A stretch of 64,000 nucleotides of DNA from Bacteroidota bacterium (GCA_013377005.1 JACABE010000021.1:4294-68293), one strand, 5' to 3'; shown: positions 8,296 through 42,498, counted from the stretch's first letter. Notes: a model not told the origin generated them from the letters alone. Numbers and translations: made by a program.

Positions 8296-8355
8296 ATTTT
8301 TTAAATTTTGGATTACATTAACATTCGTTTTATCAAATCTTATGCCAAAGATAAT

Positions 8356-8379
8356 AAAAAAAGGGAATGATTCATCCCC
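8356..8379 (-). terminator. Intrinsic terminator after the small LPP20-like gene
   Basis: The minus strand reads GGGGATG-AAT-CATTCCC (one mismatch) followed by T7, which is the complement of the A-run at 8356-8362. Confidence 0.5.
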
Positions 8380-8401
8380 TTTTGTGTTTTTTGAAATAGG
8401 A

Positions 8402-8992: not shown

Positions 8993-9102
8993 GTGTTTTG
9001 TTTTTAAGATTAATATTTGTTTTTTGTATTCTTGTTGACAAAATTTGTGCCAATTTTGTTTTGTTTATAAAGTTATAATGTGTAAAAATACTCAAATTTT
9101 AG

Positions 9103-10515: not shown

Positions 10516-10580
10516 AAATATGGGGTATTAAACAGTTTTCAAATTTATGAAAAATTATGTTTCAAAAACCATGCCGAAAA

Positions 10581-10621
10581 AATAAAAAAATCTCGTTCCG
10601 ATTTTTAACGAAACGAGATTT
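10581..10621 (-). terminator. Intrinsic terminator after the lpxK-PNP pair
   Basis: The stem AAATCTCGTT (10588-10597) pairs with AACGAGATTT (10612-10621). On the minus strand it is followed by TTTTTTTATT. Confidence 0.6.
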
Positions 10622-10643
10622 CATTTGTAAAAAGTATATTCTT

Positions 10644-27045: not shown

Positions 27046-27732
27046 TTAAAAAGAGAAAGAGTAACTTAATCCAGTAACAAAATAATTGTAAGGATCTTTC
27101 TGATGATATTCATTCTGAATGAGATAATATAATTCAAAAGACTTGCGCTTGTTTATTTTATACTCGGCTCCTATACAGTATCTCATTTTGGTTATGTCAA
27201 AGAATTGAGTGTGCTTTTGGGACGGAGACAAAGAATTATAAGATTCAAGATAAAGATAAGGTTTGATTCTTTTCGTGAAGTTATATTTTACTTGTACTTT
27301 ATTGAGCCATTGATAATCAGGTATCATTCCTTTGACAGAGGTTAAGATGTCTTTATACTCCATTTCAGCACGGGTTCTTAGCTGAAAAGTAAATAAGTAA
27401 TACGATTTTTTGAATGATACATCGAGATTAAAACGATGTCTGATAGAGTAAAAATCTTCATTTTTACGTTTTGAAAAATATCGATATCCTCCTGAAAGCA
27501 CCCAGGTTTTATTGAGTTTATAATCCATTCCGATTTCGGAATATGCAGTTCCTGTTTCTGATAAGTTTTCGCTGAATCTAAGCCCACCTTCTATATAGGC
27601 AGTAATATTACTATTAAATTTATGATCAATTTTTACATCTGTCCATAGTTGAGCATCGTTGGTTTGTGCAAATACTTTATAAGCACTAAATATAATGGTA
27701 ATGATTATAAAAAAGATTTTTAACTTACTCAT
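27046..27732 (-). CDS. DUF2490-like outer-membrane beta-barrel protein
   Basis: Signal peptide (VFAQ), alternating-hydrophobic beta strands, an aromatic C-terminal residue (SYSFSF) and WTDVKIDHKF...GGLRF. ATG at 27732 preferred over TTG at 27735. Confidence 0.5.
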   Translation of the reverse strand: MSKLKIFFIIITIIFSAYKVFAQTNDAQLWTDVKIDHKFNSNITAYIEGGLRFSENLSETGTAYSEIGMDYKLNKTWVLSGGYRYFSKRKNEDFYSIRHRFNLDVSFKKSYYLFTFQLRTRAEMEYKDILTSVKGMIPDYQWLNKVQVKYNFTKRIKPYLYLESYNSLSPSQKHTQFFDITKMRYCIGAEYKINKRKSFELYYLIQNEYHQKDPYNYFVTGLSYSFSF

Positions 27733-27749
27733 CAAAAGATTTTTTCTAT

Positions 27750-28541
27750 TTAAAATTGGGTTTCAGTAATTGTATTTATATGATTATCTGAATAATAGTA
27801 AACATTAATTGAGGCTGTATCTTTCAAAAAATCCATTTTGTTTACTGATACTCTATGAATATTTAAGCCAGTTCTTTCTTTAAGGTCTTCAATAAGTTTA
27901 CTGTAATTTTCAGCTTTAATAAATTCAATTTTTTCGTATTGAATCTGTCGATATGACTCGTGTTTAAAAATAATATTGCCATCGAGTATAAGAGTTGAAA
28001 GAATAAGAATACCATTAATAATTCCCAGTTCATAATATTCGAGTTGAATAGCACTAAGTAAACCAATAGCAATAACAATAAAAAGGTAGGTCATGTCTTT
28101 TACTGAGATACCTTCGGTTCGATAACGCAGCATTGAGAAAACGGCAAACAGTCCGAATGCTGCCCCCATTGACATCTTGACCTGATTGAGTAAAAACGTC
28201 AATAAGAAAATAGAGATATTAAAGGTGAAATAAGTAAAAAAAAGTTCTTTGTTACGGCAGTTTCTAAAGTAGATGAAAATAATAATAGTTAGAACCGTGA
28301 GGATATCTATCAACAAATCAATATAAAATGATTCGGTAATTTGGAGTTCTTTATTCTTTTTTTTCTTTTTCTTTTCTTTTAACTCTGAGTTATCTGAATT
28401 TTCATTATTATCATTTTGTTGTTGAAGTATTTCTGTCGCTTTCTGTGGTGACAAATCCTGAGTTTGTGCTTGAGTTGAAGAAAAAGGTATCCAGCTCAGG
28501 GAAATAATAAAAATGAAAATACTTAATTTAGTAAAGTTCAT
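27750..28541 (-). CDS. DUF4956-like integral membrane protein
   Basis: Signal/anchor, an acidic-then-polylysine linker (ELKEKKKKKKNKE), four or five TM helices and a soluble C-terminal domain. It overlaps the VTC gene by 14 nt, which is the usual VTC/DUF4956 pairing. Confidence 0.5.
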   Translation of the reverse strand: MNFTKLSIFIFIISLSWIPFSSTQAQTQDLSPQKATEILQQQNDNNENSDNSELKEKKKKKKNKELQITESFYIDLLIDILTVLTIIIFIYFRNCRNKELFFTYFTFNISIFLLTFLLNQVKMSMGAAFGLFAVFSMLRYRTEGISVKDMTYLFIVIAIGLLSAIQLEYYELGIINGILILSTLILDGNIIFKHESYRQIQYEKIEFIKAENYSKLIEDLKERTGLNIHRVSVNKMDFLKDTASINVYYYSDNHINTITETQF

Positions 28542-29313
28542 GATTAATTTTTTTAAGGGTTAATAGTTTTGGTTTGAAATTGTTTTGTTTTACGTTCTGG
28601 TACAGATTAATAACTCCTAAGCAATATTTACTAATCGAAAGTTCTTTTATTGCATAAGATTTAATTATTTCTGTAAAAGCTGATTTACACCTTTTCTCTT
28701 GCTTAAGTTCGGCTATTACAATATTACTCATGTATTTTGTAGCATTATCATTTTTAAAATGAAGATTAAGATCAAGTGTTAAACGTTCTGTCTGAGTTTT
28801 ATTTACTAAAGTAATACGCGCATAATTTGCCCATAATTTAGGTTTTAAATCAGCATCATTGATAAGAGCATTATTATGATAGAATGCCAATGATTTTTTA
28901 TTAATCTGTGGTGAATCTTCAATGATTTTTAAGCGAGTTTTAAAAGTGATATCCTTATTATTTTTGTTTTTTATTTCAAAAAAATGGAGGTCCGACTGCA
29001 CATAGGTTCTGTAACGAACTTTACTACGGTTTCCTTTACCACATCGATGATGGTTGTAAAATAAAAAATCATCGGTATCATAATATAGTGTATGATAGTC
29101 TGTAATGTTGTGGCCATTAACATTCAACACACGATAATTCAGAGCCAGCTTTTGCAAAATTTCAGGGAATAATTCAAGATTGAATACAAATTTAGTATCC
29201 ATCCTGCTCATCAGTTGTACATTGTCCATTTCTGTCAATGTAATCTGATCGAAGCCTGATAAAATACTTCCATATTCATTCATCGCGAATTGACTATCGT
29301 TTTGTATAGACAT
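28528..29313 (-). CDS. VTC-domain protein (triphosphate-tunnel, polyphosphate-polymerase-like)
   Basis: 261 aa, cytoplasmic. The strands RMDTKF, YHTLYYDT, KVRYRTY, FFEIK and IAELK have the alternating charged beta-strand pattern of the VTC/CYTH tunnel fold. Confidence 0.55.
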   Translation of the reverse strand: MSIQNDSQFAMNEYGSILSGFDQITLTEMDNVQLMSRMDTKFVFNLELFPEILQKLALNYRVLNVNGHNITDYHTLYYDTDDFLFYNHHRCGKGNRSKVRYRTYVQSDLHFFEIKNKNNKDITFKTRLKIIEDSPQINKKSLAFYHNNALINDADLKPKLWANYARITLVNKTQTERLTLDLNLHFKNDNATKYMSNIVIAELKQEKRCKSAFTEIIKSYAIKELSISKYCLGVINLYQNVKQNNFKPKLLTLKKINHELY

Positions 29314-29776
29314 ATTTCTTTACAGATATCAGTTTTTTATTGCCATCAAAAATCTTTTTTTCGACTTTAAAACCTTTAGCATCATAAGTTGTATAACTTT
29401 GTTTAAGAATGTTTCCGCTACCATCGTAATCAATTTCACCTATTTTTTCGTCGTTGGTGTTATATATATATGAAGTTTTGGAGATAAGTTTCCCTGTTGC
29501 ATCATATACAGTTTCTTCAATTTTATTTTTGTTAGCACTATAGGTGTGTTTTTCAGTCGTTTTAATTGCACCATCTTTGTTATAATCTATTTTTTCAATT
29601 GCATTCCCATTTTTATCATATGCGGTATACGAATCTTTTATCTCTTTACTATCCGCTGATTTAGTATTATATACCGTTTCTGAGGTAATTTTGTTTTCCC
29701 GTATTTCTTTTTTGCTTTGTGCAAATACGCTGGTATGCAGGTATAACAAAATGAATATTAAATTTAAAATTTTCAT
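29294..29776 (-). CDS. Small secreted protein made of YD-like repeats
   Basis: Signal peptide (VFAQ), then about six repeats of the form Y.YD..G..I.K..Y (YTAYDKNGNAIEKIDY, VYDATGKLISKTSY, DYDGSGNILKQSY, TYDAKGFKVEKKIF). Confidence 0.45.
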   Translation of the reverse strand: MKILNLIFILLYLHTSVFAQSKKEIRENKITSETVYNTKSADSKEIKDSYTAYDKNGNAIEKIDYNKDGAIKTTEKHTYSANKNKIEETVYDATGKLISKTSYIYNTNDEKIGEIDYDGSGNILKQSYTTYDAKGFKVEKKIFDGNKKLISVKKYVYTKR

Positions 29777-29811: not shown

Positions 29812-30231
29812 TTAATTTTGAGGTGTGTCTGCAATCACTAAATCTTTTGTAGTAACAGTTGCGTCATTTTCGGAAATAGTAACATCTTCAATAACGGCAA
29901 ATTGCCCGGATGGATTCGTTAAAGTTGTGTCTAAAGAAAAAGTATAGACTTTATATTTGCCTTTACGCAGATATTTAAACTCAAAGGTTCCACCTTCATT
30001 TGTTCGTTGTTTATCGCCATAAGCAACATTGTCGCCATAACAGATATAAACATATTTATTTGGGGCATAACATTCACCTAAAAAACTGGTAAAGGTTTTG
30101 TTATAATATCTGGCATATACTTTACCTTGAATAGAAGAGGTTCCACCTTCTCCGGCATCTTTTGAGCATGATATATTGGTTAACAAAAGAATAATTGTGC
30201 TAAGTGTTAACCACTTTTTTTGAATGTTCAT
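29812..30231 (-). CDS. Small lipoprotein with a carboxypeptidase-regulatory-like beta-sandwich
   Basis: Lipobox NISC. IQGKVYA...TNEGGTFEFKYLRKGKYKVYTF fits the CarboxypepD_reg pattern. Confidence 0.45.
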   Translation of the reverse strand: MNIQKKWLTLSTIILLLTNISCSKDAGEGGTSSIQGKVYARYYNKTFTSFLGECYAPNKYVYICYGDNVAYGDKQRTNEGGTFEFKYLRKGKYKVYTFSLDTTLTNPSGQFAVIEDVTISENDATVTTKDLVIADTPQN

Positions 30232-30251: not shown

Positions 30252-32543
30252 TTACTGTTTGATTATCTTTTTAATTTCACTGTTATTGCCCCAACTTGCT
30301 TTTAAAAAATAGACACCTTTTGCAAAACTGCTTAGATCTATTGTATTATAAGAGGATGTGGTTGCTGAATTAAAATCAAATTGCGTGCTTATAACAGATT
30401 GTGATAAAGAATTAAATAATTCAATTTTTACTGTTACGTTTTGAGCATTCACTTCAAAATTTAGCTCACTACTTGTTGGATTAGGATAGACCCACAGAAG
30501 CTCATTTTCTGATGTTGGTAAAAAGTTATAAGATGAAAATGAAGGTTTCATTACCGTAAAACTACCTGTTCCGTTTGGATAACGCCCAAAACTTAAATTT
30601 ACAGGTAGTTGGGCATAAGATATTGCATCAATTTCATGTCCATTTTGATAAGTAATATATAGGTTTCCGTTGGCAGAGGGTAATGAAAAATTTATATTCA
30701 CACTATCATTTGCAAATGAATTATTTAAACCCAATATCATATATTTTCTTGAAGGAATAATAGTATCTGGTAGCTTCCACTGAAGACGATTTGAGCTATC
30801 GTTTGACAAAAAAAGATTACATAGTAATATATTTTCATTCGTATTGTTGAAGAGTTCAATCCAACTTCCTTGTTCTAATGTTGTAATCCCATTATTATTC
30901 GATTTTATTTCATTAATAACTACATCGCCTTTAATAAGCTGAGGTTGGATTGAGTAGAATTCATATTCAGCTCGTTCTGGAGAAAAACTACCTGTACTAT
31001 CATTTTCAGCCCAAATATAATATTGTAAAACTTTTCCTTCCGACACTATTTTTGCACCATAAATTCCATCCCCTGCACTTTCATCGTGATGGTTTCCATC
31101 GTCATACATTTCTATGGATGTAAATGGAGCTTTGCTATGATTTCGATATGAAAGTAATGTTGCTGATGAATTTGAAATTTGTGCAGAAACCCAAACCTCA
31201 GAATTTTGCTCAACTACTGTAGGTTGATGTTTTACGTCAGTAATAATAGGATAATTTGAAAATCCCACATAAGATGATAAATAGGATAAACGTGCATCCA
31301 TAAGACTTTTTAGTCCTGGTATTTTTCCAGATGTCGGACCTGCATCTACTGTAAGATTGTTTTTATAATCTGAGTAAGTGTAAAATTTATTAGTATCAAG
31401 GTAAACAGCAGAATCAATGATATTTTGGTATTGTGTGGCGAGATTAAAATACTCATTGTTCTCCAGATTTTCTTTTACAATAGTTCTAAGATGAGCCAGA
31501 TACATTTTTTGATAACGTGGAATAACAAAAAGTTTCTTCATCAGAGGACGAGGAGTATAGGAATTATAATAAAGATGCTGTAATGGATCTAATTTCCCAA
31601 TTTTGTCAATGGTAAGACTTAACGAAATTCCATCAGTATTTCTGAAACTGCCAAAAGACATATTTAAATCCCATGGAATGGTGTTAAACCTATTGTAATC
31701 GTCTTTGTAGAGGTAATAATTTTGCGAGTAACCAATATAGCTGTCAAGATTAAGTATTGCATAATTAAAAGCGTGCATCCACAATGCTCTGTCAATGTTC
31801 AATACTTCTGAGATATGTGTAGTATCAATATTTAAAACATAGATAAAATTAAACAAATCTTTCCAACCGTAGTAATTCGATTCGAGTTTGTAATAAGGAA
31901 TATAGGCAGAGAAATCAGTTCCGTGTGTATAGGCAAGATTAGCATTTTGACCAAACGGATATTGTAATACTGCAGGACTACCTTTAAAGAAACTATTTCC
32001 TGATGATTTGAAGAATTTTTGAGTAAAATTGTCATCCACTGATTCAACATTTGTATAAAGTCCGATATAATAATCATTCACATATACTTTGGCAAAATTA
32101 GCCTGAGATGCCGGCATGTATTTCTGTGCTATTTTATAGGATACCACTTCGCGAACAAAAGAGGGATCGTATATCACGTTTGCCAATCTTAGTTTTGTAT
32201 TTCCTTGATAATTAAGTTTTTTAAATGTATAATTAAGATCAATACTGAATGGATTTTTCATGCGACTTACATCATAAGAACTATAACCTTTATACCGAAG
32301 ACCTGATTTTGGAAAAGATTTCCCGTTTACGGTAACGTCACAGACCAAGCGTCCCTCTTCGCCAAAATTAACAAAAAGGCTATCAAGTATTTCTCTCCAG
32401 TTGGACTCCTTAATGCTGATTTTTATTTCCTGCATCTCATTGATATCAAATAAACTGCTTTGAGAATAAAGTGAATGATTCCAGCTAAATAAAAGCAGTA
32501 TTAATGAGATTAGTAATAATCGCAAACAGGATTTTAAATTCAT
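30252..32543 (-). CDS. CotH-family atypical kinase with a lamin-tail-like domain and a T9SS C-terminal sorting domain
   Basis: The CotH core has NYYLYKDDYNRFNTIPWDLNMSFG and LWMHAFNYAILNLDSY. The LTD-like segment is VVINEIKSNN...WIELFN. The C-terminus VYPNPTSSELNF...GVYFLKA...KIIKQ is a type-A T9SS CTD. Confidence 0.7.
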   Translation of the reverse strand: MNLKSCLRLLLISLILLLFSWNHSLYSQSSLFDINEMQEIKISIKESNWREILDSLFVNFGEEGRLVCDVTVNGKSFPKSGLRYKGYSSYDVSRMKNPFSIDLNYTFKKLNYQGNTKLRLANVIYDPSFVREVVSYKIAQKYMPASQANFAKVYVNDYYIGLYTNVESVDDNFTQKFFKSSGNSFFKGSPAVLQYPFGQNANLAYTHGTDFSAYIPYYKLESNYYGWKDLFNFIYVLNIDTTHISEVLNIDRALWMHAFNYAILNLDSYIGYSQNYYLYKDDYNRFNTIPWDLNMSFGSFRNTDGISLSLTIDKIGKLDPLQHLYYNSYTPRPLMKKLFVIPRYQKMYLAHLRTIVKENLENNEYFNLATQYQNIIDSAVYLDTNKFYTYSDYKNNLTVDAGPTSGKIPGLKSLMDARLSYLSSYVGFSNYPIITDVKHQPTVVEQNSEVWVSAQISNSSATLLSYRNHSKAPFTSIEMYDDGNHHDESAGDGIYGAKIVSEGKVLQYYIWAENDSTGSFSPERAEYEFYSIQPQLIKGDVVINEIKSNNNGITTLEQGSWIELFNNTNENILLCNLFLSNDSSNRLQWKLPDTIIPSRKYMILGLNNSFANDSVNINFSLPSANGNLYITYQNGHEIDAISYAQLPVNLSFGRYPNGTGSFTVMKPSFSSYNFLPTSENELLWVYPNPTSSELNFEVNAQNVTVKIELFNSLSQSVISTQFDFNSATTSSYNTIDLSSFAKGVYFLKASWGNNSEIKKIIKQ

Positions 32544-32565: not shown

Positions 32566-33819
32566 TTATCTTACAATTATTTTTTTAGTAATTGAGTTGG
32601 ATGAATCGGAAAGTTGTATAAAGTACAATCCAGATAATAAATTTGCTATATCAATTTTGTTTTCAGAAGACTTTAACATTTTACTGAGTATAACTTTTCC
32701 TTGTGCATCCATAATTTTTAAATAATATGAATGATTGTAACTGTTGATTATTAGAATATCTTGTGCAGGATTTGGGTAAATATCAACAAAAGAGTTTGTT
32801 GGAATAGATTCTATCCCAACAGTACCATTAAAATAAGAGACACCACCACCAGTGGCTATCCATGGCTTTTGAAACTTATCTAAGGCTATGCTTGTAACTT
32901 GTGTATTCACCAAGCCATCGGTAACGGAATATGAAACCCAGTTCGTTCCATCGAATCTACTAATACCACCATCAAAATTATAATCAGCAAATACGCCAAC
33001 CCATATATTTCCATCAACATCAGTTTTCATATCACGAACAAAATTGTTGTACAAACCATCATTTGCTCTATAGTTTTTAACCCAAACATTAGAAGTGTTA
33101 AGTTTAGTGATACCATAAAAAGTGCCAATATATCGGTTGTTATTAAGGTCAAAAGCAATTGCGAAAGTATTGTCATCGAGTAAACTATCTGTTGTTAATT
33201 TTGTAAAATTTGTAAAAGTTGTTCCGTGGAGCTTTGAAACACCTCCCATTTGGGTGCAAAACCACATATCACCAGTTAAGTCAGAAGAAATATAAGAAAT
33301 AGAGTTCGTCGAAATGCCATTACTAGTAGTATAATTGGTGAATGTTCCCTGATTGAATTTGGAAACCCCACTTTGAGTTGCAAACCAAACACTTCCATCT
33401 GGAGCTCCATAAATATAATTTACATTATTATCTATAAGACCTTGTGTTGTAGTAAAATTAGTCCATGAAGTTCCATTAAACTTACTAACGCCATTATTTG
33501 TTCCTACCCATACGTTATTGCTTTTATCTGTGGCAATACAAACTGCATAATTATCTATTAAACCATTAGTAGTTGTATATGAAGTCCATGTTACATCGTT
33601 ATATTTTGCAACACCAGAAGTAGTAGAAACCCATTTTACATTATTAGTATCTATTGCAATTCCTGTTACAAAGTTATCAATAAGCCCATTTGTTGTTGTA
33701 TAATTAATAAAATTCTGACTTTTCCCATTCGAATAAGAGAAAAGCAAAATAAAAATCATTGAAACCATTAAAAAATGATTCTTTGATACATTTTTAATTT
33801 TTAACGCTGATTTTTTCAT
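32566..33819 (-). CDS. Beta-propeller protein (two-component-regulator propeller repeats) with a T9SS CTD
   Basis: At least 7 repeats of TT.NGLIDN.V..IA.D..NN.WVGT..GVSKFNG, then IYPNPAQDILI...GLYFIQL...KKIIVR. Confidence 0.7.
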   Translation of the reverse strand: MKKSALKIKNVSKNHFLMVSMIFILLFSYSNGKSQNFINYTTTNGLIDNFVTGIAIDTNNVKWVSTTSGVAKYNDVTWTSYTTTNGLIDNYAVCIATDKSNNVWVGTNNGVSKFNGTSWTNFTTTQGLIDNNVNYIYGAPDGSVWFATQSGVSKFNQGTFTNYTTSNGISTNSISYISSDLTGDMWFCTQMGGVSKLHGTTFTNFTKLTTDSLLDDNTFAIAFDLNNNRYIGTFYGITKLNTSNVWVKNYRANDGLYNNFVRDMKTDVDGNIWVGVFADYNFDGGISRFDGTNWVSYSVTDGLVNTQVTSIALDKFQKPWIATGGGVSYFNGTVGIESIPTNSFVDIYPNPAQDILIINSYNHSYYLKIMDAQGKVILSKMLKSSENKIDIANLLSGLYFIQLSDSSNSITKKIIVR

Positions 33820-33837: not shown

Positions 33838-36009
33838 TTATTTATTCAATACAATTTTACTTTGTTGAACCAATTTACCATCAACCTTTATCATAATAAA
33901 ATAAATCCCGTTGCTTAAATCAGAAAGATTCAGGGTTGATTGGTTGCTGTTTTTCAGAACCTCTTTTCCATAAATATTGATAATTTCGGTTTCAAAGCTA
34001 TTGATTGAAGCGGGTATTGATAAATTTATAATGCTTTGGGTTGGGTTTGGATAAATTATAATTTTCTGAGTTAAACTGTTATTTTCAGGAATACCCACTG
34101 TAGGCGTATAAGCAGATGAAATAGAAGTACAACCATTAGCATCTGTAACCTGAACTTGATATGATCCAGCTTGGGGAGGAGTATACGTATTTCCTGTAGC
34201 ACCTTGAATAATGTTGTTGTTGAAATACCATTGATTTCCAGAGCTGGCACTGGATGTCATTGTATTTCCTGTTTGTGAAATTGTTGGTGTTACAGGTGAC
34301 GAATATAATATAACAGATGTTGTATTGGTAGCAATATCTGAACCACTGGTTACAGTAACTGTATAACTTGTATTAGAAGTTGGAACTACTGTAGGATTTT
34401 GTAAAGTGGAAGTAAATCCAGCAGGAGATGATGTCCATTGGTAGGTATAGGAAGTTCCTCCACTTGGAGTAGAATTTAATTGAACTGTTGACCCTGGACA
34501 AACATTTACAGGCATTGCCGTTGCACTTACAGTTAAAGTGCTACTTCCTGTAATATTTACAGTAACAGAGGCTGTATCGGAACATCCAATAGCAGTATTG
34601 GTTATAATTACAGTATAAGTAGCGTTAGAAGTTGGAGAAATACTAGGATTTTGTTGCGTTGATGTAAAACCGGAAGTTGAAGTCCAAGCATAAGAATAAG
34701 TGGGACTGGATTCTGTAACCGATGTTGCTGAGGAACTTAAGGTAACTGCTGTGCCCGAAGTTACTAGAGTAGAAGAAGCACTTGCCAAAGCAATTGGAGC
34801 TCTTACGTAACATAATTCATATCTATAAGCATGAACAGATTTTGCATTTGAAATAGTTTGTAAAGTTGTTCCGTTTGGACTTACCTCGAATACACTACCA
34901 CCAGGATTACATACTAATTCATTTCCATTTCCTAATTGTTGCGAATTTCCCATATCACTTGCAGTAAATGAAGGAATTGTGGGGTTAATAACTGTTGTAG
35001 GTCCAACAATTGAACCAGCTGTATAGGTGTAATTATATCCATTATAGGGAGGATTCCAAATAGCAACTTTTACATTTCCACCGCTATTATTATTATAGAC
35101 ACACATATAATTTGGATATAATGGATTTGTAGATGGGATCCAATGTGCATCATGAATTACGTTAAATCCACTATTGTTAGCTGTTGAAGAAAGTCCATAT
35201 GTTGCAGGATTCCCCCAACGATATAGGAAATCACCACCCTTTCCGGAATTTCCTCCAGTATGTGTTGCAGCTTGAGCTGTTGTAGTACTATGGTCAATTA
35301 CATAAATTTCGCTCAATGCATGAGAGCTAATCATAATTTGGTCTAATTGAGGATTGTAATCAATACCGTTCATGTGAAACCAATCTTGTTTAATAGAATA
35401 ATTTACGTTCATTCTTTCTGGATGTTCAGACACATTGGTAACATAAGTTGATGTTACACTCGAATATACGCTTTGGCACAAATGATCCCACAAATGCCAT
35501 TCCCAAACTATGGTTCCAGTTGTAGCACCTGTAGGTTTAACTTCTATAATTTTTTCTGACCAAACAGTTATGGTTGATGAACAGCCTACGGTAGTTGGAG
35601 ATGCACTTTTTGTCTCATAACAAACCAATAAGACGTTACCATTTGGTAATGCACAAACATCGTGGTGCATTTGTGTTGAGGCATCTGATACTGCATATTC
35701 CCAAACAGTAGTTCCTGCCCAATTGACTTTTCTCACTTTACCTGTAATACCACCTTGACCAATACTTCCCGATTGATATTTGACCGTTTGAAGTATTGTG
35801 TCCCCTGGCAGAAGATAAGCAGAATATGCAGTAGATGAGCTTAAAGCCCATGTTTTATATGTAGTTCCTGTAGTATCAATCAACTTTGCCTGAGTCGTGT
35901 TTTGAGTTGCGTAAAAGGTATACATTCCCCATTTTTGCGACATTACTTTTGTGCAATTTATCGAAATAGCCCAAAGTATTATAAATGATAAAATCGTTTC
36001 TTTTCTCAT
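33838..36009 (-). CDS. Arylsulfotransferase (ASST)-like beta-propeller protein with three Ig-like repeats and a T9SS CTD
   Basis: MHHDVCALPNGNVLL, WEWHLWDH, FHMNGIDYNP and VIHDAHW resemble the ASST family. The C-terminus IYPNPTQSIINL...GIYFIMI...KIVLNK is a T9SS CTD. Confidence 0.5.
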   Translation of the reverse strand: MRKETILSFIILWAISINCTKVMSQKWGMYTFYATQNTTQAKLIDTTGTTYKTWALSSSTAYSAYLLPGDTILQTVKYQSGSIGQGGITGKVRKVNWAGTTVWEYAVSDASTQMHHDVCALPNGNVLLVCYETKSASPTTVGCSSTITVWSEKIIEVKPTGATTGTIVWEWHLWDHLCQSVYSSVTSTYVTNVSEHPERMNVNYSIKQDWFHMNGIDYNPQLDQIMISSHALSEIYVIDHSTTTAQAATHTGGNSGKGGDFLYRWGNPATYGLSSTANNSGFNVIHDAHWIPSTNPLYPNYMCVYNNNSGGNVKVAIWNPPYNGYNYTYTAGSIVGPTTVINPTIPSFTASDMGNSQQLGNGNELVCNPGGSVFEVSPNGTTLQTISNAKSVHAYRYELCYVRAPIALASASSTLVTSGTAVTLSSSATSVTESSPTYSYAWTSTSGFTSTQQNPSISPTSNATYTVIITNTAIGCSDTASVTVNITGSSTLTVSATAMPVNVCPGSTVQLNSTPSGGTSYTYQWTSSPAGFTSTLQNPTVVPTSNTSYTVTVTSGSDIATNTTSVILYSSPVTPTISQTGNTMTSSASSGNQWYFNNNIIQGATGNTYTPPQAGSYQVQVTDANGCTSISSAYTPTVGIPENNSLTQKIIIYPNPTQSIINLSIPASINSFETEIINIYGKEVLKNSNQSTLNLSDLSNGIYFIMIKVDGKLVQQSKIVLNK
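34110..34800 (-). repeat. Three tandem Ig-like modules of about 75 aa inside the ASST-like gene (approximate bounds)
   Basis: Repeats share SSTL...YSYAWTSTSGFTSTQQNPSISPTSNATYTVIITN / YTYQWTSSPAGFTSTLQNPTVVPTSNTSYTVTVTS / GNQWYFNN...GNTYTPPQAGSYQVQVTD. Confidence 0.5.
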
Positions 36010-36126
36010 ACTAAAATTTTTATTTTTTTATATCAGTTTATTTTTAAAAGTAATTCTAACTTATTTTTTAACAATATTAAAAAAGTGATATGTTTATACA
36101 AAACTTATTAGGGGTTTAGTGTTTTT

Positions 36127-36158
36127 TTATCGGTAATTCTGTATAATTTATCGATAAA
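36127..36158. promoter_or_regulatory. Two TTATCGnTAA palindromic sites 21 bp apart upstream of the T9SS-cargo/CotH/VTC operon
   Basis: TTATCGGTAA lies at 36127-36136 and TTATCGATAA at 36148-36157, within the 12-bp perfect palindrome TTTATCGATAAA (36147-36158). They are 118-149 nt upstream of the ATG at 36009. Confidence 0.25.
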
Positions 36159-36623
36159 CTATACTTAATAAAATAATTGAATTTTAAATAAATTAAAAAA
36201 TCATTTTCTTCTAAATTTTCTTAAATGTTTTTTTAAATTTAATCTTTTATATATTTTACGATGCAATATTAATATAAACTTAATGTTGGAATGTTATAAC
36301 ATTATGAAAATATGTTATGAAATTTTAATAGAATAAATAATCTATCTTATTTATTCTTTTGTGAAAACTTTTCTGTTTTTTTGCTAAATTACATTGTGTC
36401 GCTTAATATATTTTGGAGATACATTGCGGGAGAGTGTAAATTATTAAGTAAAATAAACTTTTGATGTTTAATAACTATTTGTTTTCAAGTTCGAATAATA
36501 ATTTTAGTTGAAATAATTAAAGAACATAATAACTTATTTCCTGCTTAAAAGAAAGAGGTTAATATATATCCTAAAAAAACAAATACAATAACTACTGTTT
36601 ATATTTAACCAACTATATACAAT

Positions 36624-36651
36624 AAAAAAAGGACTGTTTCCAGTCCTTTTT
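36624..36651 (-). terminator. Intrinsic terminator after the M16 peptidase pair
   Basis: GGACTG-TTTC-CAGTCC (36631-36646) is flanked by A7 and T5, and the T-tract is on the minus strand. Confidence 0.65.
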
Positions 36652-36673
36652 CATTATAGAGTTTTCATTGATA

Positions 36674-39586
36674 TTAGTATCCGAAGATATCTTCCATTTT
36701 TAAGTATTTCACTTTTCCGTATTTTTTCAATACATTAAAGTCAATTTCCTTTTTATCACCTAATACCAAGTAAGTGTGTTTCTTATCTTTAATATATTTG
36801 GTGTGGAATGTTTTTACATCATTAAAAGTCATATTTGGGACTTTAGCATATACATCCTTACGAAGATCATAATCAACGCCCAATTTTTTAGCACTTTCGT
36901 ATTGCCATAAAATATCAGATTTGGTTATTCTATCGGTTCTCATTTTCTGAATAATACCATTTTTAGCTAGAGTAAATGCTTTTTCAGATTCCGGCATATT
37001 ATTTAACAAACTGGTTAAAGCAGCCAAAGCATCATTTAATTTGTCATTCTGAGTAGCAATATAAGAAATCCCCATATAAGAATTATCTTTTTTATTAGGA
37101 CTTTGATACATTGACATAGCAGTATAAGCTAAAGAACGTGATTCTCTTAATTCTTGAAATACGATAGAATTCATACTTCCGCCAAAATATTCATTGAATA
37201 AATTTACATCAGCAGCTATATTTTTATCATATAAACCACCTTTATTTAAAAGTAACATTTGTGATTGCTTAGCATCAAAATCAACATGATAAACAATATC
37301 TTTTTTTGTTTCTAGTTCAACAAATTTTACTTCAGCAGGAACTGTTTTTAATTGTGCAGGTGTTTTGTGATAAGTATTCAGAATCTGAGTTAATTCTTCT
37401 GGTTTCTGGCTTCCGTAATACATAATATGATGTTGATATGAAAGTAAACCTTTAATAATAGTAACAAGTTCTTCTGGCTTTAATGATTTCAATTCAGCTT
37501 CGGTTAGAATATTAGTCATTGGTGATTTAGCACCGTATTTTCCATAGTTAACCATCGCACCAAAAGCTCTTTGTGGATTTAATTTGGCATCGGTTCTTTT
37601 TTTCATGATGTCTTTAATTACATTATCAAAAGCTTCCTGATCGGGTTTACAATCAGCTAAAACTTCTTCAAATAATTGCAACGCTTTTGACATATTTTCG
37701 GTTAAACCGCTTAAACTTACATAAACCTGATCCGCTGCAGCAGATACATTAAAAGAGCAACCTAATTTATAATACTCTTCTTTTAATTGATCATCAGTAT
37801 ATTTTGAAGTTCCTAAGAATTTTAAATAATTAGTTGCAACACTTAACTTTTTATCGTTATTACTTCCCATTTCAAAAACATAGAAAATATCAAACGTTTT
37901 ATTTTCAGTGTTTTCTTTATAAGTAACAGGTATATTGTTTTTAACAGTAAAGAATTGTAAATCTTTTTTGAAATCCAAAAATACAGGTTCAATTTCAGCA
38001 GGTTTATTTGCCTGTATCATTTTTAAGAAATCAGATTCAACATCGCGGTTGATTTTAATAGGCGTAATTTTAGGTTTTTTTACTTTTTTGATAGATTCGT
38101 CTTTACCTTTTCTTTTGTAAACAACTACATAATTGTCTTTTAAATTAGTTTTAGCAAAATCAACAATTTCCTGTTTGGTAATTTTTGATAATTTATCAAT
38201 ATTTTCAACAACATCTTTCCATGATTCGTTTTGGATAAAAGCATCAACAAATGCCATAGCTCTGTTGCTGTTACTTTCATATTCTTTAATTCTGCGAAGT
38301 TTTAAATCATTGATGATAGCAGGAATTAACCAATCAGGAAATTCACCTTTTTTTACCAATTCTATCTGAGAAATTAATAAATCTCTAACTTCATCTAAAG
38401 TTTGACCTGCTTTTGGTTTTCCTGTTAGCATTAATGAAGAATAATCATGCATGATATTAGGGCTTGACCCTGCACTCATTACTTTTTGTTTCTGATTCAG
38501 GTTTAAATCAATCAAACCGGCAGTACCATTGGTCAAAACCATATCAATCATAGTAATCATATCTGCTTCTCTTGAGCCACTTCCAGCAAAACGATAAGCC
38601 ATCATCATATTTTCCGCATCTGGACCAAATACTTCTTTTACAATAGGTTTTGTTATTGGTTGTTCTTGTCCAAAAGTAAATGGAGGAACTATAGAATTTT
38701 TCAATGCACCAAATTTGGAATCAATAACTTTGATTACATATTCAGGGTCAAAATCTCCTGACAAACAAATTGCAATATTATTTGGGACATAATATTTAGC
38801 AAAAAATTCTCTGATATTTTTCATCGAAGGATTTTTAATATGTTCCTGAGTTCCAATAGTAGTTTGGGTTCCGTAAGGATGATTTTGGAATAAACCTTCC
38901 AAAACTGCAGTATAAACTTTACGTCCATCATTGGTTAAGGTCATATTTTTTTCTTCATAGATGGTTTCCAATTCCGTGTGGAATAAGCGTAATACTGGAT
39001 CACTAAAACGATTAGCCTGGATAGTTGCCCAATTATCTATTTGGTTGGAAGGAATATCATCAACAAAAACAGTTTCTTCTAAGGAAGTAAAAGCATTGGT
39101 TCCATCTGCTCCGATAGCCGACATTAATTTATCATATTCGTTTGGAATTGCATAAGTAGAGGCAATATAAGAAATACTGTCAATTATTCCATACATTTGT
39201 TTTCTTTGATTTTCATCTGTCATCAACCTATATATTTCAAATAAAGAATCAATTTTTGCAATATAAGGAGCTTCCATTTTCCAATCTTTTGAACCATATT
39301 TTGAAGTACCTTTAAACATCATGTGTTCAAAATAGTGAGCCAAACCTGTAGTTTCGTGGGGGTCATTTTTGCTGCCTGCTCTAACAGCAACATAGGTTTG
39401 AATACGTGGTGCGTCTTTGTAAACAGTCATATACACTTTTAGTCCGTTATCCAGTGTATAAATCCTAGCTTTCAAAGGATCACCGGGAACTGTTTCATAA
39501 GTGTACTGTTTCTGAGCATGTACATTTACAACAAAAAGCGAAATGCTGATTAAAGCAATTCCAATAAATTTTAATTTGTTTTTCAT
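36674..39586 (-). CDS. M16-family (insulinase/pitrilysin-like) zinc peptidase
   Basis: Signal peptide, the inverted zincin motif HYFEHMMFKGT and 970 aa with duplicated M16 halves. Confidence 0.85.
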   Translation of the reverse strand: MKNKLKFIGIALISISLFVVNVHAQKQYTYETVPGDPLKARIYTLDNGLKVYMTVYKDAPRIQTYVAVRAGSKNDPHETTGLAHYFEHMMFKGTSKYGSKDWKMEAPYIAKIDSLFEIYRLMTDENQRKQMYGIIDSISYIASTYAIPNEYDKLMSAIGADGTNAFTSLEETVFVDDIPSNQIDNWATIQANRFSDPVLRLFHTELETIYEEKNMTLTNDGRKVYTAVLEGLFQNHPYGTQTTIGTQEHIKNPSMKNIREFFAKYYVPNNIAICLSGDFDPEYVIKVIDSKFGALKNSIVPPFTFGQEQPITKPIVKEVFGPDAENMMMAYRFAGSGSREADMITMIDMVLTNGTAGLIDLNLNQKQKVMSAGSSPNIMHDYSSLMLTGKPKAGQTLDEVRDLLISQIELVKKGEFPDWLIPAIINDLKLRRIKEYESNSNRAMAFVDAFIQNESWKDVVENIDKLSKITKQEIVDFAKTNLKDNYVVVYKRKGKDESIKKVKKPKITPIKINRDVESDFLKMIQANKPAEIEPVFLDFKKDLQFFTVKNNIPVTYKENTENKTFDIFYVFEMGSNNDKKLSVATNYLKFLGTSKYTDDQLKEEYYKLGCSFNVSAAADQVYVSLSGLTENMSKALQLFEEVLADCKPDQEAFDNVIKDIMKKRTDAKLNPQRAFGAMVNYGKYGAKSPMTNILTEAELKSLKPEELVTIIKGLLSYQHHIMYYGSQKPEELTQILNTYHKTPAQLKTVPAEVKFVELETKKDIVYHVDFDAKQSQMLLLNKGGLYDKNIAADVNLFNEYFGGSMNSIVFQELRESRSLAYTAMSMYQSPNKKDNSYMGISYIATQNDKLNDALAALTSLLNNMPESEKAFTLAKNGIIQKMRTDRITKSDILWQYESAKKLGVDYDLRKDVYAKVPNMTFNDVKTFHTKYIKDKKHTYLVLGDKKEIDFNVLKKYGKVKYLKMEDIFGY

Positions 39587-39636
39587 TTTTTAGATTTGTT
39601 AATAATATTTGATACTTGTTTTTTCTTTTCGTAAAA

Positions 39637-39671
39637 AAATTTGCCCAAAATATCTAATTTTGGGCAAATTT
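39637..39671 (-). terminator. Hairpin or terminator between the two M16 genes
   Basis: A perfect 15-bp stem, AAATTTGCCCAAAAT / ATTTTGGGCAAATTT, with loop ATCTA. On the minus strand the A/T-rich end of the stem runs into TTTTTAC. Confidence 0.6.
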
Positions 39672-39681
39672 TTGCTTTTAA

Positions 39682-42498
39682 TTATTTAGCCTCTTCGGGC
39701 ATTAAAACTACTCTTACATAATGGTCTTTAGTAAAACATTTTAAAGATAATTGTTTCAAATCTTCAATAGAAATTGCTTTCAATCTATCTTCAAACTTCA
39801 AGGTAAGATTAATATCATCACCATCAAAATAAGCAGATTCTAATTTCTGGAGCCAATAATTATTTTTCTTTAAATTAGTTTCTCTTTCTCTAATAACAGC
39901 TTCTTTGGCTTTATCAAAGTCAATTTGAGTTGGACCTTTTTTTAATAAATCTTTCATTATTCCAAAAACAGCTTTGGTTAATTTATCAGCATTTTTAGGT
40001 GAACAACCAAACATAACCATTATATTATATTCTGATTTTGGGTAATGCTCCATATTTATCATTGCCTGAGGACTATAAACACCACTCATTTTTTCACGAA
40101 TAACTTCAACAAGTTTAATATCAATTATTTCTTGTAATAAAGCAATTGATAGTCTGTTTTTGTCGTTCCACTCAATGTTTCCTGATATAAGTAATCCAAC
40201 CATGCCTTGTTTTTCGGTACCTTTATGAAATTTAATTTCAGTTATACCTTTTGCAAATTCAGAACTTACGTCTTTCCATGTTTCTTTTCTGTTGGTAATA
40301 GGCAAGCTACCAATATATTTTTCAATCATAGGTGTAATAGAATCCACATCAAAGTTACCCACAAAGAAAAATTTAAAATCGCTTGCATCAGCAAATCTAT
40401 CCTGATAAATCTGAAATGCTTTATCTAGTTTTATTTGATTTATTTGTTCTTCATTGGGAACAATGATCAATCTTTTTGCTCCCGGATAGGATGATTTATA
40501 TAAAGTATCATAAAAAGCAAATTGAGGATTAGCCTTAATAAATTTCAACTGATTTTTCATTTGAGATGCAAAAGTACTAAAAGCAGCTGTGTCTTTTCTT
40601 GGCGATTTAAAATAAAGGTAAGTTAATTGTAATAATGTTTCAAAATCTTTTGGTGTAGAACTTCCGGTAAATCCTTCTTTTATATCAGAAATATAAGGAC
40701 TTATCTGTACAACTTTTCCTTTTAATTTCTTTTCTAATTGTACATTGTCAAAATTACCAATTCCACTTTGGTCAACAATTTGGCTTGAAAAATTTGCCGA
40801 AATAAAATCTTGATCAGGATATAAAGAATGACCACCTGGGCTGTATGCTGAGACTAAAATTTCATCGTTTTTAAAATCGGTAGGCTTCAACACTACTTTA
40901 ATGCCATTAGCTAAAGTTAATTCAGTAAAACCAACTTCTTTATTTTCTTTTTTTGAAATAACTTTTGATCCTTTAATATTCTCAGCCAAAAGAGGTTCTG
41001 TTTTGAAATTGTCAATATAAGGTTCTATTTGTTTGGTTTTTGAATTTTTAATAATACTAAGGATTTGATCATTAGTAGGTACTTTAACACCTTCTTTTTC
41101 AGGAGCATTAACTACTAAAGCCATATTATCGTCTGACACCCATATTTTTGCTAATGCATTAATTTCAGCAAGTGTAATTTCCGGTAATAATTTTTTAGCA
41201 TATTTTAATTCATTTTTTACACCGGGAATAGGTTCTTCCGAAAGAAAATTGCTGGCATATTCAGAACAAAAATTTGCTGATTCGGTTTTATCTGCTTCTT
41301 TAGCAGCTTTTTCCATATTACTGAGGATATCTTCTTTTTGTCTTTCAAATTCAGATACAAGAAAACCGTATTTTTTAACTCTTTCGTTTTCCATCAATAG
41401 AACTTCCAGCGATTTATCTATTTGATTTTCTTTTGCAGCAGCATAAGAAGAATAAGCATCTCCACTACGAGCTAAAAATTGGCCATAAGAAGTTGAGGCG
41501 CCAATAAATGGAGCATCTTGTTTTAAAGAAATTTCAGATAATCTGGCATTTAACATTTCTGTATATAATTGCTCTATTAAATATTCTTTATAATCGGCTA
41601 AGGTCTTTTTAACAACATGAGGGTGTTTGTAGAATAACATCACCATATTACTAGTAGCTTCTTTATCTGTTGTAATGGCAATTAATGGTTCTTTATTTGC
41701 CGGTAAATCAAAGGTTGTTCTTGGTTTAGGATTTTCAGGATTTTTGATTCCTCCAAAATGTTGTTTTATCTTTGCTTCCGCTGAATCTACATTTATATCT
41801 CCAACAACAATAACAGCTTGTAAATTCGGACGATACCAATCATGGTAAAATTCGCGTAAAGTTTCATGTTTAAAACTCTGCAAATTTTCGTAAGTTCCGA
41901 TTGGAACTCTGTCGGCATATTTAGATCCTTTGAAAATTACAGGAAAATATTTTTTACGCATTCTATCATTGGCTCCTAATCCTAATCTCCATTCCTCGGT
42001 AATTACACCTCTTTCTTTATCAATTTCTTTGCCATCCATTGTTACATTGTGTGCCCAATCTTCAATGACTTGATAGCCTTTTTCAAGCAAACCTTCTTTA
42101 TCAGTAGGAATTTGAAGCATATACACGGTTTCGTCGAAACTTGTATATGCATTAATATCAGCTCCAAAACGAACACCTATGGTTTGTAAGAAATTCACTA
42201 ATTCATTTTTAGGAAAATGGGTTGTGCCATTAAAACACATGTGTTCGGTAAAATGTGCTAAACCTTGTTGGATATCTGTTTCCATTATAGAACCTGTGTT
42301 AACAGCTAAACGCAATTCAACACGTTTTTCCGGTTTTTTATTTTGACGAATGTAATAAATCAATCCATTGTCTAATTTTCCAATTCTAACTTTTGGATCA
42401 ACAGGTATTGATTTATTCAAATCAATTTTGGATTCTTGTCCAAATACGCTGGCAACCATAAATGCCAGTAATAAAAGGCTTAAAAATTTAATTTTCAT
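39682..42498 (-). CDS. M16-family zinc peptidase
   Basis: Signal peptide, HFTEHMCFNGT (HxxEH) and 938 aa. Confidence 0.85.
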   Translation of the reverse strand: MKIKFLSLLLLAFMVASVFGQESKIDLNKSIPVDPKVRIGKLDNGLIYYIRQNKKPEKRVELRLAVNTGSIMETDIQQGLAHFTEHMCFNGTTHFPKNELVNFLQTIGVRFGADINAYTSFDETVYMLQIPTDKEGLLEKGYQVIEDWAHNVTMDGKEIDKERGVITEEWRLGLGANDRMRKKYFPVIFKGSKYADRVPIGTYENLQSFKHETLREFYHDWYRPNLQAVIVVGDINVDSAEAKIKQHFGGIKNPENPKPRTTFDLPANKEPLIAITTDKEATSNMVMLFYKHPHVVKKTLADYKEYLIEQLYTEMLNARLSEISLKQDAPFIGASTSYGQFLARSGDAYSSYAAAKENQIDKSLEVLLMENERVKKYGFLVSEFERQKEDILSNMEKAAKEADKTESANFCSEYASNFLSEEPIPGVKNELKYAKKLLPEITLAEINALAKIWVSDDNMALVVNAPEKEGVKVPTNDQILSIIKNSKTKQIEPYIDNFKTEPLLAENIKGSKVISKKENKEVGFTELTLANGIKVVLKPTDFKNDEILVSAYSPGGHSLYPDQDFISANFSSQIVDQSGIGNFDNVQLEKKLKGKVVQISPYISDIKEGFTGSSTPKDFETLLQLTYLYFKSPRKDTAAFSTFASQMKNQLKFIKANPQFAFYDTLYKSSYPGAKRLIIVPNEEQINQIKLDKAFQIYQDRFADASDFKFFFVGNFDVDSITPMIEKYIGSLPITNRKETWKDVSSEFAKGITEIKFHKGTEKQGMVGLLISGNIEWNDKNRLSIALLQEIIDIKLVEVIREKMSGVYSPQAMINMEHYPKSEYNIMVMFGCSPKNADKLTKAVFGIMKDLLKKGPTQIDFDKAKEAVIRERETNLKKNNYWLQKLESAYFDGDDINLTLKFEDRLKAISIEDLKQLSLKCFTKDHYVRVVLMPEEAK

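Follow-up and report, generated by a model that had tools for sequence, protein, structure and literature searches.

A VTC-type tunnel enzyme coupled to a DUF4956 membrane protein in Bacteroidota and other bacteria: a candidate system for polyphosphate synthesis and export

An envelope-associated gene array around a VTC-type enzyme

The window analysed here, a 64,000-nucleotide (nt) stretch from a Bacteroidota bacterium (GCA_013377005.1, JACABE010000021.1:4294-68293) with a GC content of ~30% and a Lys-rich proteome, carries on its minus strand two overlapping genes that encode a VTC-type triphosphate tunnel enzyme, a putative polyphosphate (polyP) polymerase, and an inner-membrane protein of the DUF4956 family (Table 1). 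An earlier reading made from the DNA alone (the sequence-only reading) had grouped these genes with a DUF2490 gene as a trio at 27046-29313, with a 14-nt overlap and a 17-nt gap, and had proposed the trio as a possible bacterial counterpart of the eukaryotic VTC complex. Coordinates and Pfam matches, the latter all well beyond the gathering thresholds, agreed with the described arrangement: the VTC and DUF4956 open reading frames (ORFs) overlap at 28528-28541, and 17 nt lie between the DUF4956 stop codon (27750-27752) and the DUF2490 ATG at 27732, which is one codon past the TTG of that ORF and is the likely start.

The three genes belong to an eight-gene array that runs from 36009 to 27046 in the order arylsulfotransferase-like, Reg_prop, CotH, lipoprotein, p160, VTC, DUF4956 and DUF2490. 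Every intergenic gap in the array is 35 nt or less, and 18-22 nt separate the genes upstream of CotH, whose products bear C-terminal tails of the type IX secretion system (T9SS). The predicted locations of the products span all envelope compartments, with VTC in the cytoplasm, DUF4956 in the inner membrane, p160 in the periplasm, the lipoprotein lipid-anchored to a membrane, DUF2490 in the outer membrane and CotH, by virtue of its T9SS tail, at the cell surface.

Table 1. Genes of the array, with coordinates counted from the first nucleotide of the window
Feature	Position	Strand	Size and basis
VTC-type triphosphate tunnel enzyme, putative polyP polymerase	28528..29313	minus	261 aa; Pfam VTC, fold, residues
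DUF4956 inner-membrane protein	27750..28541	minus	263 aa; Pfam, AlphaFold2 (AF2) model
DUF2490 putative outer-membrane beta-barrel	27046..27735	minus	229 aa from TTG; Pfam
p160, basic beta-hairpin-repeat protein, secreted or periplasmic	29294..29776	minus	160 aa; signal peptide
Lipoprotein	29812..30231	minus	139 aa; lipobox ...NISC
CotH-family atypical kinase, lamin-tail domain, T9SS C-terminal sorting domain	30252..32543	minus	Pfam
Reg_prop beta-propeller protein, T9SS tail	32566-33819	minus	Pfam; possible accessory
Arylsulfotransferase-like propeller, PKD domains, T9SS tail	33838-36009	minus	Pfam; possible accessory

The VTC protein has the fold and the ligand residues of yeast Vtc4

The VTC protein matched the Pfam family VTC (PF09359) at E=5.8e-29 (101.7 bits against a cut-off of 23), with residues 37-237 covering positions 2-234 of the 235-position profile. 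It lacks a signal peptide, and the VTC domain stands alone, with no SPX domain, in a protein of 251-261 aa; the lower figure applies if translation begins, as it does in the majority of homologues, at Met11 (29283). More than 3,100 relatives were found in a first search, under the NCBI name 'polyphosphate polymerase domain-containing protein', and a VTC profile search of 1.84 billion representatives (50% identity clusters) returned 7,762 clusters at E<=1e-3, of which 3,921 reached E<=1e-10. Each of the 150 top-ranking representatives was a stand-alone protein of ~250 aa. No NCBIfam model matched the VTC protein or the DUF4956 protein.

A phmmer search of the VTC protein against the PDB gave nothing meaningful. 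An AF2 model built with 43 homologues had a mean predicted local distance difference test score (pLDDT) of 90.6 and a predicted TM-score (pTM) of 0.88, and when it was compared with the PDB by Foldseek the 13 best matches were all tunnel domains of yeast Vtc4, Vtc3 and Vtc2 (E 1.7e-11 to 2.4e-9, TM ~0.6). A second tier consisted of YgiF (E=3.8e-8) and triphosphate tunnel metalloenzymes (TTMs) of the ThTPase and CyaB type (~1e-6). On the strength of the model, the protein can be assigned confidently to the triphosphate-tunnel fold of VTC type, a predicted eight-stranded beta-tunnel.

To place the active site, the Vtc4 tunnel-domain sequence was checked residue by residue against PDB entries 3g3q and 8i6v and aligned over its full length with the family profile by hhalign (local mode, low mact). 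The alignment puts the conserved residues on predicted strands of the model and equates R37, K41, R100, R102, K115, K125, Y164, R166, R177, E202, K204, S228 and K229 of the window protein with Vtc4 R196, K200, R264, R266, K281, K294, Y359, R361, R373, E426, K428, S457 and K458, respectively. A cryo-EM study of the VTC complex found the triphosphate held by Vtc4 K200, R264, R266, K281, R361, K458, S457 and Y359 and Mn2+ held by E426, mutation of any of the eight triphosphate ligands lowering polyP; K458 is the sole one of these residues missing from the inactive subunits Vtc2 and Vtc3. Among the 43 close homologues, eight of the nine ligand positions are invariant and Y164 is kept in at least 90%. 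The positions are equally well kept in a cross-phylum alignment of Bacteroidota, Deinococcota and Alphaproteobacteria (27-35% identity). The sequence-only reading had named loss of the tunnel residues or of the fold as grounds for its refutation, and neither was seen. K229, the equivalent of the polymerase-specific K458, is invariant in the bacterial VTC family, and so is R37, which, like Vtc4 R196, puts an Arg at the position of the first Glu of the ExExK motif. This motif of the CYTH family was reportedly described by Iyer and Aravind in 2002. Because the Vtc4 active site is fully conserved, a polymerase step can be proposed for the bacterial protein.

The VTC-DUF4956 pair is conserved within a larger unit in Bacteroidota

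Gene neighbourhoods were compared in a scan of one genome per species that yielded 588 confirmed relatives. The counts below use the best 80 loci, nearly all of them Bacteroidota-named, and each denominator is the number of loci with room for the gene in question. A DUF4956 gene lies immediately 3' of VTC in 69/74 loci, and its first in-frame ATG overlaps the 3' end of VTC in ~62-68 of the 74, typically by 4 to 26 nt. On the other side, p160 is immediately 5' of VTC in 66/77 loci. The lipoprotein gene is adjacent in 44/72, and in 14 others it lies at a different place in the locus. DUF2490 is immediately 3' of DUF4956 in 46/73, with 18 others that have it at a different place in the locus, and CotH is found in 27 of 65.

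The arrangement is not due to chance: in the related loci VTC is nearly always followed by DUF4956, and DUF4956 often by DUF2490. The trio of the sequence-only reading is thus present, but the conserved unit is bigger, a five- to eight-gene array of the form [T9SS CotH kinase]-lipoprotein-p160-VTC-DUF4956-DUF2490, which in the window reaches upstream past the trio to 29776, 30231 and 32543 and of which DUF2490 is the least constant member. That the genes might be mere neighbours with no shared function is effectively refuted, since adjacency and overlap are conserved both in these loci and in at least four other phyla, in either gene order.

Some genomes hold a second, rearranged copy (loci L020, L029 and L030, ~8000-11600), in which lipoprotein, p160, DUF4956 and DUF2490 share a strand, DUF4956 comes after p160 without an intervening VTC, and a VTC gene converges from the other strand. 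At least one metagenome-assembled genome with a rearranged copy also has the canonical copy on another contig (L032). One locus (L036, NZ_FZMP01000233.1) is labelled Candidatus Methanoperedens nitroreducens; it is an 8-kb contig with a VTC-DUF4956 pair ~48% identical to the Bacteroidota genes, and the pair is probably bacterial contamination of the archaeal bin rather than an archaeal copy. An apparent VTC-DUF4956 fusion in the same locus and an apparent DUF4956-DUF2490 fusion in L073 proved to be ORF calls reading through stop codons.

The pair recurs in other phyla beside phosphate genes

Outside the Bacteroidota the same coupling was found in Deinococcus, Alphaproteobacteria and Nonomuraea. 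A Deinococcus plasmid has the order CotH-VTC-DUF4956, plasmids of Aminobacter, Shinella and Nitratireductor have DUF4956-VTC, often overlapping, followed by a phytase-like esterase, and in Nonomuraea DUF4956 lies just upstream of VTC. The Nitratireductor plasmid also carries an inorganic phosphate transporter, and a search seeded with the Nitratireductor protein revealed a Roseobacter-group clade. In all 7/7 sampled Roseobacter-group contexts DUF4956 is immediately upstream of VTC, so that the order is reversed relative to Bacteroidota and the pair is kept. A PHO4/PiT gene is directly downstream in 4/7 of these contexts, a Phytase-like gene is present in 3/7, His_Phos_1 or Inositol_P in 2/7, and a HisKA/response-regulator pair lies directly downstream of PHO4 in 2/7; across all sampled alphaproteobacterial contexts, PHO4/PiT is directly downstream in 5 and Phytase-like is present in 6. 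Because the Roseobacter-group neighbours are phosphate-related, they provide independent evidence that the pair works in the phosphate economy of the cell. Taken together, the coupling and the contexts indicate that VTC and DUF4956 probably act jointly in phosphate-polymer metabolism.

One Roseovarius sp. operon (L088, JBGEHK010000002.1, 5390-10829) has the order DUF4956-VTC-PHO4-Phytase-like-Alginate_exp, in which the phytase-like protein starts with a signal peptide and the Alginate_exp barrel ends in Phe. A phosphate-themed module without CotH is also seen in L089, L090, L093 and L085. Because the Roseovarius operon has Alginate_exp, an outer-membrane barrel of the anionic-polymer type can accompany the pair, as DUF2490 does in Bacteroidota; the association with a barrel recurs, with a different family in a different phylum.

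The phosphate-scavenging character of these neighbours is also what an inward system would show, in which DUF2490 or Alginate_exp together with DUF4956 would import polyP or an organophosphate and the VTC-like enzyme would act in the cytoplasm as a tri- or polyphosphatase, as YgiF and other CYTH hydrolases do. Hydrolysis is the activity of most TTM enzymes characterised so far, YgiF comes next after the Vtc proteins among the structural matches, and an Asp or Glu at position 39 of the bacterial proteins recalls the second Glu of ExExK. However, the first Glu of that motif is replaced by the invariant R37, as in Vtc4, the Lys that the inactive Vtc2 and Vtc3 lose is invariant, Vtc proteins rank above all hydrolases in the fold search, and the alphaproteobacterial operons already have a separate importer in PHO4. 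We consider import with hydrolysis quite unlikely, and retain synthesis by the VTC protein as the preferred reading.

DUF4956 is a polytopic protein unrelated to Vtc1

The window DUF4956 protein matched its Pfam family (PF16316) over the full profile (E=4.8e-51, 173.3 bits) and has more than 6,000 relatives. Its AF2 model (pLDDT 71.5) shows transmembrane (TM) helices at residues 70-94, 98-120, 125-143, 147-164 and 169-187, preceded by a hydrophobic, signal-peptide-like N-terminal helix and a disordered segment (residues 20-64) that holds an acidic run and a KEKKKKKKNK run, and followed by a beta-alpha-beta-beta domain at residues 195-250. Loop charges agree with an N-out/C-in topology, which would place loops TM1-2 and TM3-4 in the cytoplasm together with the C-terminal domain; this small domain gave weak, ACT/KH-like fold matches. 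In close relatives the block KxSMGAAFGLFAVFSMLRYRTEGI..KDMTYLF is invariant, and the cross-phylum invariants are FGLFA, R141, E143, T151, Y152 and F154 (TYxF), plus R223 and G225 in the C-terminal domain.

Two N-terminal forms, which differ in the region of residues 20-69 of the window protein, were distinguished in Bacteroidota by comparing L010, L014, L024, L026, L035 and L041 with L004, L007, L011 and others. The long form, to which the window protein belongs, has a signal peptide with an A/Q cleavage site, an acidic run and a conserved poly-Lys stretch, and the short form has an acidic tail of ~25 residues. Both forms fit an external N-terminus. The Lys-rich stretch is unusual for a segment predicted to be periplasmic, and it could bind a polyanion.

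The sequence-only reading had likened the membrane protein, as well as the enzyme, to the eukaryotic VTC complex. The catalytic part of that comparison held, as described above, and the membrane part did not: no DUF202 match was found in DUF4956 by Pfam even at E<=10, hhalign of the DUF4956 profile with the verified Vtc1 sequence gave a probability of 0.15%, phmmer of DUF4956 against the PDB returned nothing meaningful, and no VTC chain was among the Foldseek matches of the DUF4956 model. Because no relation to Vtc1/DUF202 is detectable, DUF4956 is to be regarded as an analogue, not a homologue, of the VTC membrane part, and if it conducts polyP it is an independently arisen one.

These properties leave room for a view in which the VTC product stays in the cytoplasm, DUF4956 is an anchor, sensor or regulator, and the envelope genes are unrelated or belong to the uptake side, in the acquisition of phosphate compounds. 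Under this view it would be expected that DUF4956 resembles no channel and is modelled as a compact five-helix monomer, that its soluble domain recalls, if only by weak matches, a type often used in ligand sensing, and that DUF2490 adjacency is not constant; the PHO4, phytase-like and two-component neighbours would fit a phosphate uptake and storage regulon too. Yet bacteria already store cytoplasmic polyP by means of PPK1/PPK2, and a cytoplasmic product leaves unexplained both the translationally coupled polytopic partner that is present in every phylum and the co-transcription with signal-peptide, lipoprotein, outer-membrane barrel and T9SS proteins. It is in our judgement fairly unlikely, and an outward role for DUF4956 is preferred.

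Periplasmic and outer-membrane partners in Bacteroidota

DUF2490 (PF10677) was matched at E=3.8e-24 (85.9 bits), alongside weak OMP_b-brl and BBP2_2 matches, and the protein has a signal peptide ending ...VFA/Q and a C-terminus ...SFSF with a final Phe. In the TC classification the family appears under 1.B.81, as a putative porin whose function is unknown, and a 2026 preprint reports AlphaFold models of its members as outer-membrane barrels. About ten Arg/Lys residues are conserved, several of them at i,i+2 spacing (Arg ladders), and the family has a median pI of 9.56. At residues 123 and 143 (counted from the ATG) the window protein has Glu and Leu instead of the Gln and Arg present in 96% of 65 orthologues, a deviation that may be a local alignment shift or true divergence.

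The mature p160 protein has a pI of 8.5-9.4 in 67/67 orthologues; it belongs to no Pfam family and gave only weak matches to RHS/YD/MORN-like repeats. The lipoprotein has an invariant C22, a conserved K24, a GxGG motif and a CarboxypepD_reg-like motif. In many loci (e.g. L007, L011, L019 and L037-L039) DUF2490 stands beside a relocated lipoprotein gene, and because a detached DUF2490 so often adjoins the lipoprotein gene, the two are suggested to form a pair, in which the lipoprotein is likely the outer-membrane partner of the DUF2490 barrel. That DUF2490 is itself the export pore is possible, although doubtful.

A T9SS-exported CotH kinase adjoins the module

The window CotH protein matched Pfam CotH (PF08757) at E=5e-39 (135 bits), with LTD and Por_Secre_tail domains in addition, and its profile matched Bacillus cereus CotH (5jd9) at E=1.6e-26. 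The positions of the catalytic Asp, the Asn and the metal-binding Asp (D267, N275 and D292) are invariant; NLD267, N275 and WD292 align with NFD, HN and WD of B. cereus CotH, and the Asp spacing matches the 23-25-residue interval of B. subtilis D228/D251. These residue roles reportedly come in part from the work of Nguyen et al. 2016. Orthologues of the genes upstream of CotH were found in 13 loci (arylsulfotransferase-like) and in 8 loci (Reg_prop, at least 37% identity). The presence of an extracellular group-transfer enzyme, the arylsulfotransferase-like protein, beside an extracellular kinase is suggestive.

CotH kinases polyphosphorylate Ser/Lys/Arg-rich repeats, and the source of ATP at their site of action has been called an open question. 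In one extended proposal, the polymerase, DUF4956, p160, the lipoprotein and DUF2490 would secrete polyP across the whole envelope to the surface, where it would act as phosphoryl donor or scaffold for CotH. If true, this would solve the supply of phosphate donor for kinases outside the cytoplasm; at present we rate trans-envelope secretion for this purpose as improbable.

The substrate range of CotH also bears on a different chemistry, in which the tunnel enzyme would transfer phosphate or polyphosphate onto a carrier (a lipid, a glycan, an exopolysaccharide or a protein such as the DUF4956 Lys tail) while CotH phosphorylates the surface or matrix. In Firmicutes and Actinobacteria, CotH, VTC and DUF4956 genes co-occur beside polysaccharide loci, Pel among them; they are also found together in Deinococcus and in many Bacteroidota loci, and the conserved acidic and poly-Lys tail of the long DUF4956 form would offer an acceptor. 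Against this, CotH is missing from the alphaproteobacterial loci and from many of those in Bacteroidota, the Lys tail is missing from the short form of DUF4956, and the active site corresponds to that of a polymerase making free chains. Because CotH and the tail are absent from so many loci and forms, they are not essential to the core chemistry, and transfer to a carrier appears distinctly improbable relative to the synthesis of a free chain, to which we now return.

A model for polyphosphate synthesis and export

The data establish the domain identities, the fold, the conserved residues, the coupling of the genes and their contexts; from these we infer an enzyme activity, an interface between VTC and DUF4956, a direction of transport and a role for the outer-membrane parts as follows. 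The core would be a two-gene module composed of a cytoplasmic, Vtc4-like tunnel enzyme and the DUF4956 inner-membrane protein. The enzyme would take the gamma-phosphate of ATP in a Mn2+/Mg2+-dependent reaction and build a polyP chain in its basic tunnel. The chain would then pass to DUF4956, whose invariant R-x-E loop and C-terminal domain lie, by prediction, on the cytoplasmic side and whose helices carry conserved polar residues, and DUF4956, probably as an oligomer, would move the polymer to the periplasmic side. In Bacteroidota, p160, the lipoprotein and an Arg-lined DUF2490 barrel may hold the polymer in the envelope or pass it across the outer membrane, the module being co-transcribed with the T9SS-exported CotH and other surface proteins of the same pathway. 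The alphaproteobacterial version, in which the core is accompanied by PHO4 as importer and by a phytase-like hydrolase in the periplasm, would parallel a cycle of yeast: polyP made by VTC accumulates in the vacuole, is broken down by enzymes of the lumen and is recovered as inorganic phosphate (Pi) through a transporter. Here the periplasm would stand in for the vacuole.

Several observations weigh against this model. At the enzyme, the VTC profile reaches only Vtc2 in the PDB (E=0.11), and hhalign detects only weak similarity to Vtc4 (E=1.3e-3, probability 18%), so that the residue mapping depends on the fold match and the motif pattern; bacterial VTC proteins have Asp or Glu at position 39, where Vtc4 has Thr and hydrolytic TTMs have Glu, which makes a hydrolase chemistry possible. 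At the membrane, the DUF4956 model is of only moderate confidence and shows a compact five-helix bundle with no obvious pore in the monomer, its fold search against the PDB gave no significant match and no known channel (best E 0.09), and no VTC-DUF4956 fusion occurs among the 150 representatives. At the outer membrane, DUF2490 is missing or detached in a third of loci, some DUF2490 barrels hold a buried charge network according to the 2026 preprint, so that DUF2490 could be a plugged rather than an open barrel, and the basic pI of p160 and DUF2490 is weak evidence because the proteome, at 30% GC, is Lys-rich. Finally, no experimental work on bacterial VTC-domain proteins or on DUF4956 was found in the literature searched.

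With these points included, the full proposal (a VTC polymerase working with a DUF4956 protein that passes the chain outward, along a path that periplasmic, lipoprotein and barrel parts extend in Bacteroidota) is put forward tentatively, as having somewhat less than an even chance of being correct.

Its consequences would be considerable. A 2023 review of polyP evolution analysed the distribution of VTC across eukaryotes only and ascribed bacterial polyP synthesis to PPK1 and PPK2, so that VTC is seen as a eukaryotic invention; here a large bacterial family has an intact Vtc4 active site. If its members are true polymerases, bacteria would have a third way of making polyP, and the eukaryotic enzyme would appear to have originated in bacteria. 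That the family is obligatorily coupled to an unrelated membrane protein, and also associated with outer-membrane parts, suggests deposition of polyP outside the cytoplasm, with a bearing on periplasmic phosphate buffering, on biofilm matrix chemistry (the pel neighbours described below), on virulence loci such as NELoc-2 of Clostridium perfringens and on the unexplained energy source of secreted CotH kinases.

Comparison with known systems

The closest known system is the yeast and eukaryotic VTC complex (Vtc4 with Vtc1, Vtc2 and Vtc3; PDB 3g3q, 7ytj and 8i6v), which has the same tunnel fold and supplied the best structural match. Every triphosphate and Mn ligand, the polymerase-specific Lys among them, is present in both, and in both a cytoplasmic catalytic part is genetically tied to a polytopic membrane part; some bacterial operons also encode, as yeast does, a phosphate transporter and a hydrolase that acts on the opposite side of the membrane. 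In contrast to yeast VTC, separate genes encode the catalytic and membrane parts in bacteria, the partner in the membrane (five TM helices plus a soluble domain) is unrelated to the three-TM DUF202/Vtc1 domain, and the target would be the periplasm or cell surface, not the vacuole, with outer-membrane and T9SS components added. Because the bacterial protein has no SPX domain, the system would also operate without the inositol-pyrophosphate control of its yeast counterpart.

The CYTH/TTM hydrolases (E. coli YgiF, ThTPase and CyaB-type proteins; PDB 5a60, 5a65 and 2aca) likewise have an eight-stranded tunnel with alternating basic and acidic residues, but they carry ExExK and act as hydrolases or cyclases, whereas the window protein has Arg at the first Glu and the C-terminal Ser-Lys of Vtc4. 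PPK1 and PPK2 use a nucleoside triphosphate to make polyP, the product proposed here, and PPK1 is membrane-associated; their folds, however, are unrelated, their products stay cytoplasmic, and they have no polytopic partner or outer-membrane components. No PPK family was matched in the Pfam scan of the window proteins.

In its logic the proposed system resembles synthase-dependent exopolymer secretion (alginate Alg8/44-AlgK-AlgE, Pel, cellulose Bcs), with polymerisation at the cytoplasmic face, passage through the inner membrane, a periplasmic protein, an outer-membrane lipoprotein, an outer-membrane barrel and an anionic polymer. The Alginate_exp barrel of the Roseovarius operon and the position of the Gram-positive module next to pel add to the likeness. 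The difference lies in the polymer, here proposed to be inorganic, and in the parts: there is no glycosyltransferase and no cyclic di-GMP receptor, and none is homologous except Alginate_exp.

Related gene sets have been listed before. Genes for cotH, a 'poly-phosphate polymerase' and DUF4956 (plus DUF4832) were noted as an accessory set beside Gram-positive pel operons, their function being untested there, and NELoc-2 of C. perfringens has two VTC genes, each followed by a membrane-protein gene, with CotH adjoining; the gene labelled 'tubulin/FtsZ GTPase' in that locus appears to be DUF4956. The same three families thus occur in the same neighbourhood, but these hosts are monoderm, their sets include no lipoprotein, p160, DUF2490 barrel or T9SS tails, and the reports only list the genes. 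In Bacteroides thetaiotaomicron, BT3498-99 is a DUF4956-DUF2490 pair, for whose locus tags the literature yielded only a non-significant iron-response entry.

The sequence-only reading had described the trio as uncharacterised in bacteria. No characterisation was found in the literature searched, in agreement with that statement, but the association of cotH, VTC and DUF4956 is already in print, and the catalytic domain is of a known type that databases name accordingly. What appears to be new is the split enzyme with a non-homologous membrane partner, the envelope-spanning accessories and the links to CotH and phosphate transport; the mechanistic proposal of polyP export by VTC and DUF4956 was not found in the literature searched.

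Other features of the window

Elsewhere in the window, a 1,090-aa ORF with no Pfam match at E<=1e-5 lies at 47138-50410, downstream of genes for an OMP_b-brl protein and a DUF3575 protein. A reading of the region as a defence system was considered and dropped, PADLOC models having given zero matches.

Upstream of the array, on the same strand, is a tandem pair of large M16 (insulinase-like) peptidase genes at 36674-42498, encoding proteins of 970 and 938 aa. A sigma-70 promoter scan gave background-level signals only, with a model unsuited to Bacteroidota. Between the peptidase genes and the array lies a 665-nt AT-rich intergenic stretch (36009-36674; GC 0.255 in the surrounding 2-kb bin), which is likely the promoter region of the array, and a strong terminator-like hairpin stands at 36652-36625, just after the preceding M16 peptidase gene.

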